Shown here piece after piece: positions 50,581 to 57,538 of a stretch of DNA of 58,011 nucleotides. The DNA is from Thermodesulfovibrionales bacterium (GTDB lineage Bacteria; Nitrospirota; Thermodesulfovibrionia; Thermodesulfovibrionales; JdFR-86). How positions within the stretch are numbered: the stretch's first letter is position 1; every line of letters starts with the position of its first letter. The stretch spans positions 1-58,011 of the forward strand of contig JAUXOF010000041.1 of NCBI GenBank assembly GCA_030682405.1, read 5' to 3'. The position numbers were made by a program, and so were the translations under genes. The notes under the pieces were generated by a model. That model worked only from the letters and a program-made list of their open reading frames with translations. It had not been told where the DNA came from and did not search any database.

Positions 50581-51813
50581 CTATTTTTTCTTCAGGCCGA
50601 AGGCATCGTGAAGCGCCCTGACGGCAAGCTCGGTGTATTTTGCGTCTATCACGCATGAGACCTTTATCTCCGAAGTGCTTATCATTATGATATTGATGTT
50701 GTGCTTTGCCAGCGTTGCGAACATCTTGGCCGCCACCCCGGAGTGCGTCCTCATGCCGACTCCGATAATGGAAACCTTAGAGATGTCGTCCCTCAGAGCA
50801 ACGCCCTTTGCATTAAGCCCCTTTACAATCTTTTCGGTCAGGTTAAGCGCCTTTTTGCTGTCCGTCTTGGGCACGGTGAAGGAAATGTCCGTGGCCTTTC
50901 CGTCGGAGCTTACGTTCTGCACTATCATGTCCACGACGAGGTCTGCCTCTGCAATGGAACTGAAGAGCCTTGCCGCTATCCCCGGCCTGTCGGGCACTCC
51001 CATAACCGTAATCTTCGCCTGGTTTTTGTCGTATGCGATTCCGGATACCACAACATGTTCCATCTCCTCATCCTCCTTAATGACAACCGTTCCGGGGTTG
51101 TAGTTGAAGCTTGACCTGACGACAAGCGGGACATTGTACTTCTTGGCAAGCTCCACAGACCTCGTCTGAAGCACCTTGGCTCCGAGGCTTGCCAGTTCAA
51201 GCATCTCGTCATACGATATCCTGTCGAGCTTTCTGGCCTCTGGCACGATATTGGGGTCGGTCGTGTAAACGCCGTCAACATCCGTGTATATTTCGCAGGC
51301 GTCGGCTTTAAGCGCTGCGGCTACGGCAACTGCCGTGAGGTCTGAGCCGCCCCTGCCGAGGGTTGTTACATCGGAGGTTTCGGTTATGCCCTGAAAGCCC
51401 GCAATAACCGGGATTATTCCCTTTTTCACCGCCTCTTTCACCCTGCCGGCGGTAATCTTTTCTATCTTGGCCTTTGTATGAAGGGTGTCGGTTATAATCC
51501 CGACCTGCCTTCCTGTGAAGGCCATGGCCCGCTTGCCGAGTTCCTCCAAGGCCATTGCCGTAAGCGCGCTTGTGATGCGTTCGCCCGAGGAAAGCAGCAG
51601 GTCCATCTCCCTTTCCGGCGGGGACGATGAAACGCCGTTCGCAAGGGCTATGAGCTTGTCCGTCTCGCCGGACATGGCAGAGACGACGACCACTACGCCC
51701 TTGCCCTCATCGGCAGTCCTTGCAACCCTTTTTGCAACGGCCTTTATGCGTTCTATGTTTCCGACGGACGTGCCGCCGTACTTCTGAACGACCAGAATTT
51801 TGCGTGAAGCCAA
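50581..51813 (-). CDS. lysC: aspartate kinase
   Basis: [41 protein letters not shown], two ACT domains. Confidence 0.95.
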
Positions 51814-51817
51814 CCCC

Positions 51818-53029
51818 CTACCCCTCCTTCATAAAGTAGTCCATAAGCCTGAAACCCTCTTCTATCCTCACGATGTCGTCTCTTTCAGAGAGCGTCTCGT
51901 CAAACCGCGCGCCCTTGTTGTCTTTCTTTTGCCTGCTGTCGTAAAGGACAAACGGGACAGGCTCCTCAGTATGGGTCCTGGCCTCTACGGGAGTTGCGTG
52001 GTCAGGAAGCAGGAGGATTTTATACTCATCAAAGGGCTTGATGCCCCTCAGGACGGTTCCCACGACAAGGGCGTCAAAGTCCTCTATCGCCTTTATCTTG
52101 TCGTTACAATTGCCGGAATGCCCGGCCTCATCCGGCGCCTCCACGTGGATATACGCAAAGTCCACCCGTTCGAGGGCATTAAGCGAATACTCCGCCTTTC
52201 CCACATAGTTTGTATCGAGGTAGCCCGTAACTCCCGGCACCTTCAATATCTCAAGTCCCGCATAAATGCCGAGCCCTTTTGTGAGGTCTACTGCCGAGAC
52301 CATTACGCCCTTAATTCCGTATCTTTGGGTAAAGGACGGCAGGCTCGGTTTTTTGCCCTGCCCCCAGAGCCATATGCTGTTGGCCTGCCTCCTGCCGCTT
52401 TCAACCCTTTTCTTGTTTACCGGGTGAGCTTCAAGCACTCCGACGGAACGGAGCATCAAATCCCTGAGGGTTTCCTCGCCTTCTCCAACAGGGAGGTAGT
52501 CCGTGACCTCTTTATCAAGGATGTCGTGCGGCGGGGTGCATTCAGGGCCGAGCGAGCCGCCCGCCCAGACCATGAGGTGCCTGTAGCTTACGCCCGGATA
52601 AAATGTTATCTCCTCCGAGCCGAGCGATGCGTTCAACTCTTTAATCAGTTCTGCGGCCTCTCCGGTTGATATATGTCCGGCGCAGTAGTCTTTCATGTGC
52701 GCCCTTGCCATTTGTTTGTCATAGCCTAAAGTGACGAGGTTGCACCTGTAGGCCACATCTTTTTCTTTAAGCCCGACGCCCATGCTTGCGGCCTCAAAAG
52801 GCGCCCTGCCGGTATAGTACTGTGCAGGGTCGTATCCCAGTATGCTCAGGTTGGCCACGTCCGAGCCGGGGTGGAAGCCTTTCGGGATGGTCCTTACCAT
52901 GCCGATTGTGCCTTCTCTTGCGAGTTTGTCCATGTTGGGCGTGAAGGCCTTCTCAAGAGGGGTTTTACCGCCAAGTTCTTTTACCGGCCTGTCGGCCATC
53001 CCATCGCCAATCATGACGATATATTTCAT
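51818..53029 (-). CDS. apgM: cofactor-independent phosphoglycerate mutase family (ApgM-like; candidate homoserine kinase substitute)
   Basis: [31 protein letters not shown] metalloenzyme motifs; translationally coupled to thrC. Confidence 0.85.
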
Positions 53030-54093
53030 AATATCCTCTCAATTGCATCCTGAACAGTGCGCAGGACGGCCTTTACCTTCAGGGGCTTCTCTGTTACCTT
53101 AAACACGGTATCCGGATCCTTAAGCCCGTGGCCGGTGAGGGTGCAGACGACTTCGTCTCCGGGCTTGAGGAAGCCTTCTTTATGGAGTTTGATTACGCCT
53201 GCCAAAGAGGAGGCGGATGCAGGCTCGCAGAATATGCCTTCTTGAGAGGCTATCAGGCTGTAAGCCCGGAGTATCTCGTCGTCGGTGACAGCCTCTATCC
53301 TGCCGCCGGATTCGTCCCTTGCCGCTACAGCGCCTTTCCAGCTTGCCGGGTTCCCTATCCTGATGGCAGTGGCGATGGTCTCGGGTTTTTCCACAGGCCT
53401 TCCGAGCACAATGGGCGCTGCCCCTGCAGCCTGAAACCCGAGCATACGGGGAAGGGAAGACACCCTGCCTTTGTCCTTATATTCCTTATAGCCCATCCAG
53501 TAGGCGGTTATGTTCCCTGCGTTTCCAACGGGAAGGGCATGATACCTCGGCGCCCTGCCGAATTCGTCCGCCACCTCGAATGCGGCGGTCTTCTGCCCCT
53601 CAATCCTGAAGGGGTTTATGGAATTCACAAGGGTTATGGGATAAATCCCGACTATAGACTTTACTATGGAAAGGGCCTCGTCAAAATTGCCTTCAAGCTG
53701 GAGCACGCGGGCGCCGTGTATGAGGGCCTGTGCGAGCTTCCCGAAGGCTATCTTCCCTTCAGGTATCAATACTATGCACTTTATGCCCGCCCTTGCCGCA
53801 TATGCCGCTGCCGAGGCAGAGGTGTTTCCGGTAGATGCGCATATCACCGCGCTTGAGTCCGCCTCAAGCGCCTTTGATATGGCGAGGGACATGCCCCTGT
53901 CTTTGAACGAGCCTGTGGGGTTTGCGCCCTCGAATTTAAAATAAACGTCTATGCCGGGAAGTATCTCCTTGAGGTTTCTCGCCTTTATAAGAGGTGTATG
54001 GCCTTCCTTCAGCGTTATGACAGGGGTCTTTTCCGTAACCGGCAAAAACTCCTTGTACTGCTCGATTATGCCGCTCCAGATTAGTTCACTCAT
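53026..54093 (-). CDS. thrC: threonine synthase
   Basis: [66 protein letters not shown]. Confidence 0.93.
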
Positions 54094-54330
54094 TCACTCA
54101 ACTATGTCACCTTCTACAAGTTCCACCTCAACGCCCTGGTCGCGGAGATACTGTATGCCTTTTCCGAGGTTTTTTTCTTCGCCCTCAAGTTCAAGCACCA
54201 TCTCGCCCACTGTTTCGGTAACCCTTGCCCTTCTGATGTTAGGCATCACATCAAATTTCTTGGCCATTGCAAATATCACAGGCTCCTTTATGAGATGCTG
54301 CGGAAAAGTAAGCTTAACCCTTTTTTTCAT
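54094..54330 (-). CDS. stand-alone NIL-domain protein
   Basis: VKLTFP..LIKEPVI...FDVMPNIRRARV....GEMVLELEG......GIQYLRDQGVEVE is the NIL (ACT-like) pattern. Confidence 0.85.
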   Translation of the reverse strand: MKKRVKLTFPQHLIKEPVIFAMAKKFDVMPNIRRARVTETVGEMVLELEGEEKNLGKGIQYLRDQGVEVELVEGDIVE

Positions 54331-54339
54331 CTATCCTCC

Positions 54340-54663
54340 TTAGTGATTTTCCACGAAAAGAAGGTTCGCAACCCCTTCCCGTGGGGGTTCGCAACCCCCG
54401 GCGATGGCAGGGACTATCGAGACCTCGTCGCCGTCTTTTACCTCGGTCTGCTCCGCCTTGAGAAATCTTATGTCTTCCTCGTTGACATAGATATTGACGA
54501 ACCTTCGTATCTTGCCCCCTTCGGACAGCCTTTCGCCTATTCCTGGGAACTTAGCTTCAAGGTCGTTTAGAAGGCCTATCACCGTTCCCGGCTTGCCCTC
54601 GACCTCCTCTTTCCCCTCTGTAAGCCGCTGAAGCGGACTCGGAATCTTTACCTTCACAGCCAT
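54340..54663 (-). CDS. MoaD/ThiS/CysO-family ubiquitin-like sulfur carrier with 17-aa extension after GG
   Basis: VKVKIPSPL...RRFVNIYVNEEDIRFL...DGDEVSIVPAIAGG then CEPPREGVANLLFVENH*. Confidence 0.9.
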   Translation of the reverse strand: MAVKVKIPSPLQRLTEGKEEVEGKPGTVIGLLNDLEAKFPGIGERLSEGGKIRRFVNIYVNEEDIRFLKAEQTEVKDGDEVSIVPAIAGGCEPPREGVANLLFVENH

Positions 54664-54704
54664 TCTGAAATCACCTCCATACAGGGCAGCGCCCCTTTCT
54701 CGAT

Positions 54705-55940
54705 TTAAGTTTTAAGCCCCTTAAGCACATCTTCGAACGATGCAAGGTTTGCCTTTATATGATGCACGCTTGCCATATGCCCTGAAAGGGCCTCCTGTGT
54801 CTTAAGCCCGTTGCCGGTTATACAGAGCACAATGCTTTCGTCCCTTGATATTTTACCGGTTTCGATGAGCTTTTTTGCGCAGGCCAAAGTGACGCCCCCT
54901 GCGGTTTCGGCAAACACGCCCTCGGTTTTTGCAAGGAGTTTAATCGCATCTATTATCTCCCTGTCGGAGACGTCCTCGGCATACCCGCCGCTTTCCCTCA
55001 TGGCCTGAAGCGCATAGAAGCCGTCTGCGGGGTTTCCTATGGCAAGGGACTTTGCCACGGTGTCTGGCTTGACCGGCCTTATGACGTCCGTGCCCTGCTT
55101 CATTGCAGCCGCTATGGGAGAACATCCTGTCGCCTGCGCTCCGAAGAGCTTTGTCGGAAGCTCCTTGATTATCCCTATCTCCTTAAATTCCTTGAAACTC
55201 TTCCATATCTTTGTAAGGAGCGAGCCGCTTGCGCACGGCACTACGATGTTGTCCGGCGCCTTCCAGCCCAACTGCTCCGCTATCTCAAAGCCCTGCGTTT
55301 TAGAACCCTCGGCATAGAAGGGCCTGATGTTGATATTTACAAAAGCCCATTTGTATTTATTGGCTATCTCGCTACAGAGCCTGTTGACGTCGTCGTAACT
55401 GCCGTCCACTGCCAAGAGGTTCGGCTCATATACAAGGGATGCCACTATCTTGCTCGGCTCAAGCGTGGCCGGAATGAATATGAACCTTTTGAAACCCGCC
55501 CTTGCGCCGTGGGCTGAGACCGCCTGCGCAAGATTGCCGGTGGATGCACAGGCCACGGTGTCAAAGCCGAACTCCTTTGCCTTTGTCAGGGCAACGGCAA
55601 CGACCCTGTCCTTAAAAGAGAGTGTGGGGTGGACTACTGTATCGTCCTTTATATAAAGCTCGTTGACACCGAGTTCCTTTGCGAGGTTTTCGGCCTTAAG
55701 AAGCGGCGTGCAGCCGGATTCAAGCCCGACCTGCGGCTCGCCGTCTATGGGCAGAAGCTCCTTGTAGCGCCAGAGGTTTTGTTCTCTCTTCTCTATATTC
55801 TTTTTTGTAAGGACCTTTTTTATTCCTTTATAGTCGTAAACGACCTCAAGCGGGCCGAAACAGAACTCGCATACGTAAACCGGCTCTACGGCGTAATCCC
55901 TGCCGCACTCCCTGCATTTTAAGCCTGTTACATAGCCCAA
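54705..55940 (-). CDS. second threonine-synthase-like PLP enzyme with N-terminal Zn ribbon (candidate sulfur-carrier-dependent sulfhydrylase)
   Basis: CRECG...CEFC, PTLSFKDR, CASTGNLA, FYAEGSKT, VAKSLAIGNPADG, TGNGLKT; TTG 55940 is 8 nt after GGAGG. Confidence 0.85.
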   Translation of the reverse strand: MGYVTGLKCRECGRDYAVEPVYVCEFCFGPLEVVYDYKGIKKVLTKKNIEKREQNLWRYKELLPIDGEPQVGLESGCTPLLKAENLAKELGVNELYIKDDTVVHPTLSFKDRVVAVALTKAKEFGFDTVACASTGNLAQAVSAHGARAGFKRFIFIPATLEPSKIVASLVYEPNLLAVDGSYDDVNRLCSEIANKYKWAFVNINIRPFYAEGSKTQGFEIAEQLGWKAPDNIVVPCASGSLLTKIWKSFKEFKEIGIIKELPTKLFGAQATGCSPIAAAMKQGTDVIRPVKPDTVAKSLAIGNPADGFYALQAMRESGGYAEDVSDREIIDAIKLLAKTEGVFAETAGGVTLACAKKLIETGKISRDESIVLCITGNGLKTQEALSGHMASVHHIKANLASFEDVLKGLKT

Positions 55941-55976
55941 CCCTCTCACCTCCATAGGACTAAAGTGTTGTATGTT

Positions 55977-56000
55977 CCTTCAAATTATATATTATTTGAA
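55977..56000. promoter_or_regulatory. 9-6-9 inverted repeat enclosing a minus-strand TATAAT (candidate operator/promoter)
   Basis: CCTTCAAAT-TATATT-ATTTGAAGG; TATAAT on the minus strand at 55989-55984. Confidence 0.45.
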
Positions 56001-56058
56001 GGGGAGATTAGAAATAATATTTTACTTTAAACCGTGGAAATTAAAAACCCCTTCGGCG

Positions 56059-56490
56059 TTAAACCGGCACTATCGTTATTTCCCTTATCCCCGCCTTCCC
56101 TATTAGTAGAAACGCCTTTATCTCCGGCCCGCCCTCTGCAAGCCCGATTATCACATAGGCCGTGCCGGGGAAATTCTCATAATCGGTTCCGGGGAAGAAT
56201 GCCCGATTTATGTCTATTTGCGAAGGGTAGGCAGGCGAGGCCGGGTGCGAGTGGTATATGGCGAGCATCTTTTTACCGTCTTTCTCTATATCCCTCATCA
56301 CGTTTAGTTGCTCGTCCGGGTGCATCATGTATGTTGTGGAAGACAAGTCCGCATTCCTCATCCTATGAAGTTTCTCAACAGCATCCCCGCTTCCGGAAAG
56401 TATGCCGCAGGCCTCTTTAGGGTATGCCCCTTTTGCGTGGGCCACCATCTCGTCTATTATTGCCTTCGGGATAGAAAGCGCTTGCATCAC
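56059..56490 (-). CDS. JAB/MPN (Mov34, Mec-like) metallopeptidase
   Basis: KEACG...IYHSHPASPAYPSQID is the JAMM motif. Confidence 0.92.
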   Translation of the reverse strand: MMQALSIPKAIIDEMVAHAKGAYPKEACGILSGSGDAVEKLHRMRNADLSSTTYMMHPDEQLNVMRDIEKDGKKMLAIYHSHPASPAYPSQIDINRAFFPGTDYENFPGTAYVIIGLAEGGPEIKAFLLIGKAGIREITIVPV

Positions 56491-57293
56491 CGGCGTATGG
56501 AGCAGTAACCGGCCTCGTAATCAAGAAGCTCCGTAATGGTGGGGTTTTCGCCGCAGACGGGACATGCGGGATTTTTCGGCACCTTTACCTTCCTGAAGGT
56601 CGTTTGAAGCCCGTTGTATATCAGAAGCTCGCTTTTAAGCACGTCCCCTTTGCCCAATATCAGCTTTAATACCTCGGCGGCCTCAAGCGAGCCTATTACG
56701 CCCGGAAGCACCCCTAAGACCCCGGCCTCCTGGCACGAAGGCACAAGCCCGGCAGGCGGAGGCTCCTCAAACAGGCATCTGTAGCAGTGCCCCTCATGCG
56801 GGACGATGGTTGTCACCTGCCCTTCAAATTTCAGGATAGCTCCGCTTACAAGGGTTTTTTTGAGCATCACGCATGCGTCGTTTACAAGATACCTTGTCGG
56901 GAAATTGTCGCTTCCGTCAACCACTATGTCGTAGTCCTTCATTATGTCCAGAATATTGTCCCTTGTGAGTTTTCCCTTTATGGCGTTTATGGTCACATCC
57001 GGGTTCAGGGCGCTGAAGGTCTCTTTTGCGGACTCCACCTTGGGTCTTCCGAGGCTCTTTACGCTGTGGGCTATCTGCCGCTGGAGGTTGCTGAGTTCAA
57101 CCGTGTCGTTGTCTACAATCCCTATGGTGCCCACCCCTGCGGCAGTGAGATAAAACCCCACAGGGCATCCGAGCCCGCCCGCGCCGACGATGAGGACCTT
57201 TGCGGAAAGGAGCTTCCTCTGCCCTTTTCCGCCGACCTCAGGCAGTATGATGTGCCTTGAGTATCTCTGGAGCTGTTCCTCTGTGAATTCCAC
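56487..57293 (-). CDS. MoeB/ThiF-family (E1-like) adenylyltransferase, no rhodanese domain
   Basis: QRYSRHIIL, GAGGLG, SNLQRQ, DGSDNFPTRYLVND, CYRCLF, SCQEAGVLG, CPVCG. Confidence 0.92.
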   Translation of the reverse strand: MEFTEEQLQRYSRHIILPEVGGKGQRKLLSAKVLIVGAGGLGCPVGFYLTAAGVGTIGIVDNDTVELSNLQRQIAHSVKSLGRPKVESAKETFSALNPDVTINAIKGKLTRDNILDIMKDYDIVVDGSDNFPTRYLVNDACVMLKKTLVSGAILKFEGQVTTIVPHEGHCYRCLFEEPPPAGLVPSCQEAGVLGVLPGVIGSLEAAEVLKLILGKGDVLKSELLIYNGLQTTFRKVKVPKNPACPVCGENPTITELLDYEAGYCSIRR

Positions 57294-57538
57294 TAATCCT
57301 TTTCCTTTCTTATAAGGAGCACCCAGTCCGTCTCGTTTACCTTCTCCACCTTGAGCACCTTCTGCCCGTGGTCTTCCATGGACTTAGGGATGCTCGTCGC
57401 CGCAACGGGATAATCAAGCACTATCTCAAGCACTTGCCCAACCTCCATGTCTTCTATCGCCAGCTTCGCCTTGACAAAGGTATAAGGGCAGACGAGGCCC
57501 CTGATGTCTATGGACTTATCCGGCTTGACGCCGCCCAT
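57293..57538 (-). CDS. tusA: TusA/SirA-family sulfurtransferase
   Basis: IDIRGLVCPYTFVKAK...GQVLEIVLD; TAGTG overlap with the moeB-like gene. Confidence 0.88.
   Translation of the reverse strand: MGGVKPDKSIDIRGLVCPYTFVKAKLAIEDMEVGQVLEIVLDYPVAATSIPKSMEDHGQKVLKVEKVNETDWVLLIRKEKD

Follow-up and report, generated by a model that had tools for sequence, protein, structure and literature searches.

A MetM/MetO-type thiocarboxylate route to homocysteine predicted within the threonine-branch operon of a Thermodesulfovibrionales bacterium

We analyzed a 58,011-nucleotide stretch of DNA from a Thermodesulfovibrionales bacterium (GenBank assembly GCA_030682405.1, contig JAUXOF010000041.1; hereinafter the window, in whose numbering positions are given) and found on its minus strand an operon (50581-57538) that very probably encodes a protein-thiocarboxylate pathway for homocysteine of the MetM/MetO type, set within the branch leading from aspartate to threonine. 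The coordinates and translations of the open reading frames (ORFs), combined with Pfam and NCBIfam matching of each protein, gave the transcription order tusA, E1, JAB, a ThrC-like gene (metM), a MoaD-like carrier gene (metO), NIL, thrC, an apgM-like gene (homK) and lysC (Table 1). An earlier note on this DNA had listed these genes as a tightly packed cluster, and all of them are indeed present on the one strand; the span that it gave (53026-57538) runs from tusA to thrC, with homK and lysC lying just outside. The tusA and E1 genes overlap by 1 nt and E1 and JAB by 4 nt, followed by gaps of 103 nt from JAB to the ThrC-like gene, 41 nt from there to the carrier and 9 nt from the carrier to NIL; NIL and thrC abut, thrC and homK overlap by 4 nt, and a 4-nt gap separates homK from lysC. 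Dissulfurispira thermophila, with a complete genome, has the same gene order (hom-tusA-E1-JAB-metM-metO-NIL-thrC-homK...lysC), which argues that the arrangement is not due to chance, and lysC also belongs to the same operon in three further relatives (L013-L015).

A pathway of this type has been described in Streptomyces albulus (Hasebe et al. 2024, Appl Environ Microbiol 90:e0124724), where, according to GapMind 2026 (PMC13759103), O-phosphohomoserine is converted to homocysteine by way of a thiocarboxylate: the carrier MetO is matured by the JAMM hydrolase Mec, MoeZ serves both as E1 and as sulfur ligase, and the ThrC homolog MetM acts as the synthase. Annotations frequently mistake MetM for threonine synthase (GapMind 2026, PMC13759103), and databases likewise label the 416-aa ThrC-like protein of the window 'threonine synthase'. 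In a maximum-likelihood tree, however, 81 MetM-like sequences form a single clade (support of 100 in the Shimodaira-Hasegawa-like approximate likelihood ratio test; stem length 1.08) apart from true ThrC, whereas the 355-aa ThrC of the window clusters with the ThrC proteins of solved structure 6cgq, 2zsj, 1uim and 2d1f (B. subtilis, Aquifex, Thermus and M. tuberculosis). The two ThrC paralogs, whose phylogeny the earlier note had proposed as a check, are thus found in distinct clades, the shorter with true ThrC and the longer with MetM; the two co-operonic proteins are 36% identical.

The MetM clade is further marked by substitutions at positions that, in Thermus thermophilus ThrC numbering followed by that of the window protein, read T88 to L142, S155 to N209, N157 to R211, R160 to Y214 and Q164 to S218, with additional changes of the G187-N-A-G-N loop to A242-S/G-G-S-L, A240 to S303 and R242 to A305, while the pyridoxal 5'-phosphate (PLP)-binding lysine is retained. 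These signature residues are invariant or nearly so over all 81 sequences of the clade, their ThrC counterparts are invariant in ThrC, and the 355-aa ThrC of the window retains T/S/N/R/Q/GNAGN at the signature positions. T88, S155, N157, R160 and the GNAGN loop are conserved residues of the ThrC active site. Cysteate synthase was considered separately as an identity for the 416-aa protein and rejected, since TIGR03844, whose cut-off is 325 bits, is matched at only 71 bits.

A locus scan of species-representative genomes with an 8-sequence alignment as query retrieved, as its best 80 loci, MetM homologs of 54-82% identity from Nitrospirota, Planctomycetota, Verrucomicrobiota, Chloroflexota, Cyanobacteriota, Acidobacteriota, Nitrospinota, Actinomycetota and other phyla, with no Streptomyces among them. 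When the window's proteins served as queries in iterative searches to count the neighbors in these 80 loci, a MoaD-like gene was seen directly downstream of MetM in 71, spanning at least 12 phyla; elsewhere in the vicinity of MetM, NIL occurs in 37 loci (a raw count), E1 in 23, JAB in 14 and TusA in 4. Of 41 genomes from its family or order, 38 have MetM as a single copy, and the window protein is 82% identical to that of D. thermophila. Together, clade, signature and carrier pairing point to the 416-aa protein being a member of the MetM family, itself apparently tied to methionine, and bear out the earlier note in its claim that a ThrC-like, carrier-linked PLP enzyme distinct from threonine synthase is encoded here.

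A link of the family to methionine is suggested by its regulation. In 8 of the 13 loci scanned for RNA families, drawn from Myxococcota, Binatota, Verrucomicrobiota, Chloroflexota and Acidobacteriota, an S-adenosylmethionine (SAM)-I riboswitch (RF00162, 73-96 bits) lies directly upstream of MetM or of an E1-MetM pair. The same order, namely a SAM riboswitch, MetM and then the carrier, was recovered in the cultured actinomycete Nonomuraea gerenzanensis, whose MetM is 51.8% identical to that of the window and whose 91-aa carrier ends in ...AVAGG and is 49% identical to the window carrier. This agrees with S. albulus, where an mSystems paper places a SAM riboswitch upstream of metM; the same paper gives 51.6% for the Microcystis orthologue against that of S. 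albulus. The Nonomuraea locus (L100, NZ_LT559118.1) lies on an 11.85-Mb replicon that PLSDB carries as 'plasmid I' with annotations for only 10 features; the replicon is in effect a chromosome, hence the appearance of a MetM/MetO locus in a plasmid collection.

Searches of the genome (2.03 Mb, 99.77% complete) for other routes to homocysteine found no true PF01053 enzyme (MetB/C/Y/Z; the best match was partial, at 27 bits) and no DUF39, MetA or MetX, so that the MetM route stands as the only recognizable source of homocysteine. Likewise, no ThrB scores above its cut-off in the genome, leaving HomK, of a family that complemented an Escherichia coli thrB mutant (GapMind 2026, PMC13759103), as the only recognizable source of O-phosphohomoserine; a separate apgM paralog is encoded on contig C64. 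In contrast, the genome has CysK (TIGR01139, 445 bits, contig C23), a CysM-like protein (TIGR01136, 378 bits, contig C2) and a CysE homolog. Hence, the earlier note's proposal to look for missing metA, metX, metY, metB and cysK was borne out for the four met genes and failed for cysK. Its proposal that a carrier thiocarboxylate reacts with O-phosphohomoserine gains support from the genome-wide pattern of routes, the adjacency of HomK and the clade of the PLP enzyme, and the operon is, as judged from its predicted gene functions, a combined threonine/homocysteine branch-point operon with HomK.

From this gene content and the characterized relatives we infer the following course for the pathway. 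LysC, together with Asd and Hom encoded elsewhere, would convert aspartate to homoserine, which HomK would phosphorylate to O-phosphohomoserine, the branch point from which ThrC would make threonine and on which MetM would also draw. In parallel, JAB would trim the 17-residue tail of the carrier to expose its Gly-Gly, which the short E1 would then adenylate; the sulfur would come from a TusA persulfide or, in this sulfate reducer, from free sulfide. MetM would catalyze a PLP-dependent gamma-replacement in which the C-terminal thiocarboxylate of MetO serves as the nucleophile toward O-phosphohomoserine, yielding a MetO-homocysteine adduct, and the same JAB protein would resolve this adduct, freeing homocysteine and recycling the carrier. 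NIL would be an accessory, most likely with a ligand-sensing role.

The Gly-Gly of the carrier is encoded at 54394-54399 and its 17-aa tail, CEPPREGVANLLFVENH, at 54343-54393 (minus strand); in twelve relatives, D. thermophila included, the tails are 0-4 aa. The sequence that is extra here, some 45 nt, resembles a local insertion or duplication. The JAB protein has, in its translation, an intact JAMM motif (E26 ... H80-x-H82-x7-S90-x2-D93), in agreement with its earlier naming as a JAB peptidase, and both JAB and TusA hold the same position in the D. thermophila operon. The E1 covers the MoeB, MoeZ and UbaA models only in their E1 part and consists of a ThiF domain alone, as the earlier note had noticed when it suggested that TusA could replace the rhodanese domain; indeed, tusA is translationally coupled to the E1 gene. 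As tusA overlaps the E1 gene here and adjoins it in D. thermophila, it is plausible that TusA stands in for the rhodanese domain. Moreover, a rhodanese domain was found in just one of the eight E1s tested (seven encoded beside MetM in other phyla and that of D. thermophila). Three additional TusA paralogs are encoded elsewhere in the genome. In the spacer between JAB and metM, the motif TTTnGAGTAAAATA is conserved in an alignment of the window with four relatives and is probably an internal promoter for metM-metO-NIL-thrC-homK-lysC; given this resemblance, tusA-E1-JAB and metM...lysC may form separate transcription units. In an uncultured Actinomycetota genome (L025:6244-7308), a single 355-aa ORF directly after MetM (ThiS + ThiF) joins a MetO-like carrier, at the N-terminal end, to an E1.

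Several points weigh against a MetM/MetO pathway in this organism. The organism is known here from its genes alone, and the tie of its MetM to the characterized S. albulus MetM (A0A059WBP2) and MetO (A0A059W7F4) is indirect, running through the literature, the Nonomuraea ortholog and cyanobacterial orthologs. The E1 has no rhodanese domain (PF00581, Pfam), in contrast to MoeZ, and scanning the window region against Rfam detected neither a riboswitch nor any other RNA family. Further, the methionine synthase families PF01717 and PF02574 have no match in the genome or in D. thermophila, and therefore the step that consumes homocysteine is without a candidate. In the genome itself, phmmer searches with domain-split E. 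coli MetH and MetE, a regular expression for the zinc motif and a hidden Markov model built from five diverse MetE-superfamily proteins from plasmid records were likewise negative, and a HemE probe found no MtaA-like enzyme; as a control on the sensitivity of the first of these families, PF01717 gives no match in M. acetivorans either. A very divergent corrinoid-dependent core methionine synthase, akin to MesB or MesC (Price 2021), may thus exist, or else some other enzyme for this step. A Wood-Ljungdahl acsE-acsD-acsC-acsB cluster at C69:322-5818 was read from translations, of which only acsE has a search match.

Of the other explanations for the operon, one has the carrier, E1, JAB and TusA forming a general system for molybdopterin synthesis or tRNA thiolation, with the ThrC paralog acting independently. 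Such a role has some foothold, since the best-scoring models are those of MoeB for the E1 and of MoaD/SAMP for the carrier, and since the genome encodes MoaA (C31:11704-12723), MoaC (C29:29048-29566), MoeA (C45:1-2052) and MoaB. Only two ThiS-family genes were found in the genome, the window carrier and a thiamine-type ThiS next to what we take to be thiG, thiE and thiC, so that the MetO-like protein is the only non-ThiS carrier and may have a second job in molybdopterin synthesis. A second E1, on contig C57 between genes that, as read from translations, are presumably proA and bioA, is probably ThiF and can serve ThiS. Yet MoaE (PF02391), the partner that MoaD requires, is absent from both the genome and D. 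thermophila, with an E. coli MoaE phmmer search also finding nothing in the genome, and the molybdopterin synthase step is without a candidate; the window carrier/E1 pair may stand in for the missing MoaD/MoaE function. Moreover, a general carrier would not be expected to show so strict a pairing with the ThrC-like gene, which in cyanobacteria extends to 15 of 15 loci with no other genes of the module nearby. Accordingly, we give a general carrier system little chance as the full account of the operon.

A slimmer chance still attaches to the module being one for cysteine, wherein the ThrC-like enzyme would use O-phosphoserine and the carrier thiocarboxylate in the manner of CysM/CysO/Mec, an option that the earlier note had left beside the homocysteine one. 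The ThrC-like gene lies among hom, thrC, homK and lysC and not among serine genes, its orthologs are under SAM riboswitches, the genome has no other route to homocysteine, and the cysteine genes listed above are already encoded elsewhere. On the other hand, the CysM-like protein of this genome could itself use the carrier, and the presence of CysK/CysM-like genes, JAB and E1 beside MetM-MetO in other phyla points to a possible further use of the carrier in cysteine synthesis in those phyla. We observed that this CysM-like protein (C2:10279-11187) ends in ...CGKCPP; it could be a cysteine synthase dependent on O-phosphoserine or on the carrier, and hence a second client of the latter. Separately, one or two CysK/CysM-like genes were seen together with JAB and E1 beside MetM-MetO in several other phyla (L018, L019, L021, L022, L024, L027, L030, L042, L043, L056, L060, L065 and L070), which suggests combined cysteine/homocysteine thiocarboxylate clusters sharing a single carrier. 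Least credible is the reading of the ThrC-like protein as either another threonine synthase or a cysteate synthase, for although it passes NF006050 (314 bits, cut-off 303) and TIGR00260 and bears the threonine synthase name in databases, its low identity to the co-operonic ThrC, its separate clade, the replacement of eight invariant ThrC positions (T88, R160 and the GNAGN loop among them), the misannotation recorded by GapMind and the riboswitches of its relatives, which point to methionine, all speak against it.

The MetM/MetO pathway remains the favored account, and within it the stand-alone NIL protein calls for separate consideration. It shows weak similarity to the methionine-binding C-terminal domains of MetN proteins of known structure. 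It contains no cysteine, and is therefore not itself a sulfur carrier. After assignment of each ORF to its best family, the NIL-containing loci span at least 11 phyla; NIL occurs near MetM/MetO in 8 of 8 Nitrospirota, 7 of 11 Verrucomicrobiota, 4 of 10 Planctomycetota and 4 of 10 Chloroflexota loci, and was not found in the MetM loci of Cyanobacteriota (0/15) and Acidobacteriota (0/5). A literature search found no paper describing NIL as part of the MetM/MetO pathway. We propose that NIL is an accessory, most likely ligand-sensing, and probably one that has so far gone undescribed for the pathway. More tentatively, and with the balance of probability against it, NIL might be a third MetM/MetO component outside actinomycetes and cyanobacteria, sensing methionine, SAM or homocysteine and thereby gating carrier maturation, carrier activation or MetM activity. 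If true, such a sensor would replace or supplement riboswitch control, and NIL, TusA and the rhodanese-less E1 would together mark out a separate 'anaerobe-type' form of the pathway.

Table 1. Genes and spacer of the operon, in transcription order and window coordinates.
Feature	Position	Strand	Characteristics
tusA	57293..57538	-	81 aa; PF01206 75.8 bits; CP-motif Cys17
E1 (MoeB/ThiF-type adenylyltransferase)	56487..57293	-	268 aa; PF00899 287 bits; no PF00581
Prok-JAB (JAMM) metallopeptidase, Mec/HcyD-like	56059..56490	-	PF14464 79 bits
JAB-metM spacer	55956..56058	-	103 nt; AT-rich promoter-like motif TTTnGAGTAAAATA
ThrC-like PLP enzyme (MetM-type homocysteine synthase, predicted)	54705..55955	-	416 aa; PLP-Lys115; N-terminal 4-Cys ribbon Cys14/17/29/32
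ThiS/MoaD-like carrier (MetO-type)	54340..54663	-	107 aa; PF02597 63 bits; AIAGG at residues 86-90
NIL protein, stand-alone	54094..54330	-	78 aa; PF09383 71 bits; no Cys
thrC, canonical threonine synthase	53026..54093	-	355 aa; TIGR00260 327 bits
homK (apgM-like, iPGM-like homoserine phosphotransferase)	51818..53029	-	TIGR02535 ('proposed homoserine kinase') 565 bits, cut-off 446
lysC, aspartate kinase	50581..51813	-	NF005155 621 bits

Comparison with known systems places the operon closest to certain thiocarboxylate pathways. As in the M. tuberculosis CysO/CysM/Mec/MoeZ system, a carrier thiocarboxylate activated by an E1 would attack the phosphorylated ester of an amino acid on a PLP enzyme, with a JAMM protein releasing the product; there, however, the PLP enzyme is of the CysK/CysM family and acts on O-phosphoserine, whereas here it is of the ThrC family and lies in a homoserine context. 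The Wolinella succinogenes HcyS/HcyF/HcyD/MetY pathway for homocysteine, reportedly the subject of work by Krishnamoorthy and Begley in 2011, resembles the predicted one in its product and in the masked carrier C-terminus trimmed by a JAMM peptidase, but differs in its use of MetY (PF01053) and O-acetylhomoserine, with PF01053, MetX and MetA all lacking in this genome. A NIL domain also figures in a sulfide-dependent route to homocysteine that relies on DUF39 and a NIL-ferredoxin protein, said to have been treated by Rauch in 2014; in our case there is no DUF39, and the NIL protein has neither a ferredoxin domain nor a cysteine. That route operates in methanogens and Desulfovibrio (Price 2018, PMC5764234).

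The strongest likeness is to the S. albulus system, with which the operon shares a ThrC-family PLP enzyme followed by a Gly-Gly MoaD-like carrier, an E1 and a JAMM hydrolase, and O-phosphohomoserine as the logical substrate; SAM-I riboswitches control orthologs in actinomycetes and in at least 7 other phyla. It differs in the E1 being devoid of a rhodanese domain and coupled to TusA, in HomK taking the place of ThrB, in having no riboswitch, in being a single cluster with thrC and lysC, in the 17-aa tail of the carrier and in the NIL gene after the carrier. This route is included in GapMind 2026, where a diverged Mec is entered for D. thermophila (PMC13759103). With the S. albulus route and that Mec on record, what the earlier note had put forward as a candidate new pathway is already published and predicted for a sister species, and the cysteine/O-phosphoserine option that it had added is unlikely. 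The operon is instead a further example of a known pathway with local variations, namely TusA with a short E1, HomK for ThrB, a masked carrier Gly-Gly and NIL.

For the order to which the organism belongs, comprising sulfate-reducing and sulfur-disproportionating Nitrospirota, MetM/MetO would be the only recognizable route to homocysteine. Beyond the published pathway, the operon adds a recurrent NIL partner, TusA and a short E1 as a plausible substitute for the rhodanese of MoeZ, and a combined threonine/homocysteine operon with HomK. Given that the MetM family extends to at least 12 phyla while its genes are still annotated as 'threonine synthase' and 'MoaD', its recognition bears on metabolic reconstruction and on the prediction of auxotrophies from metagenomes.

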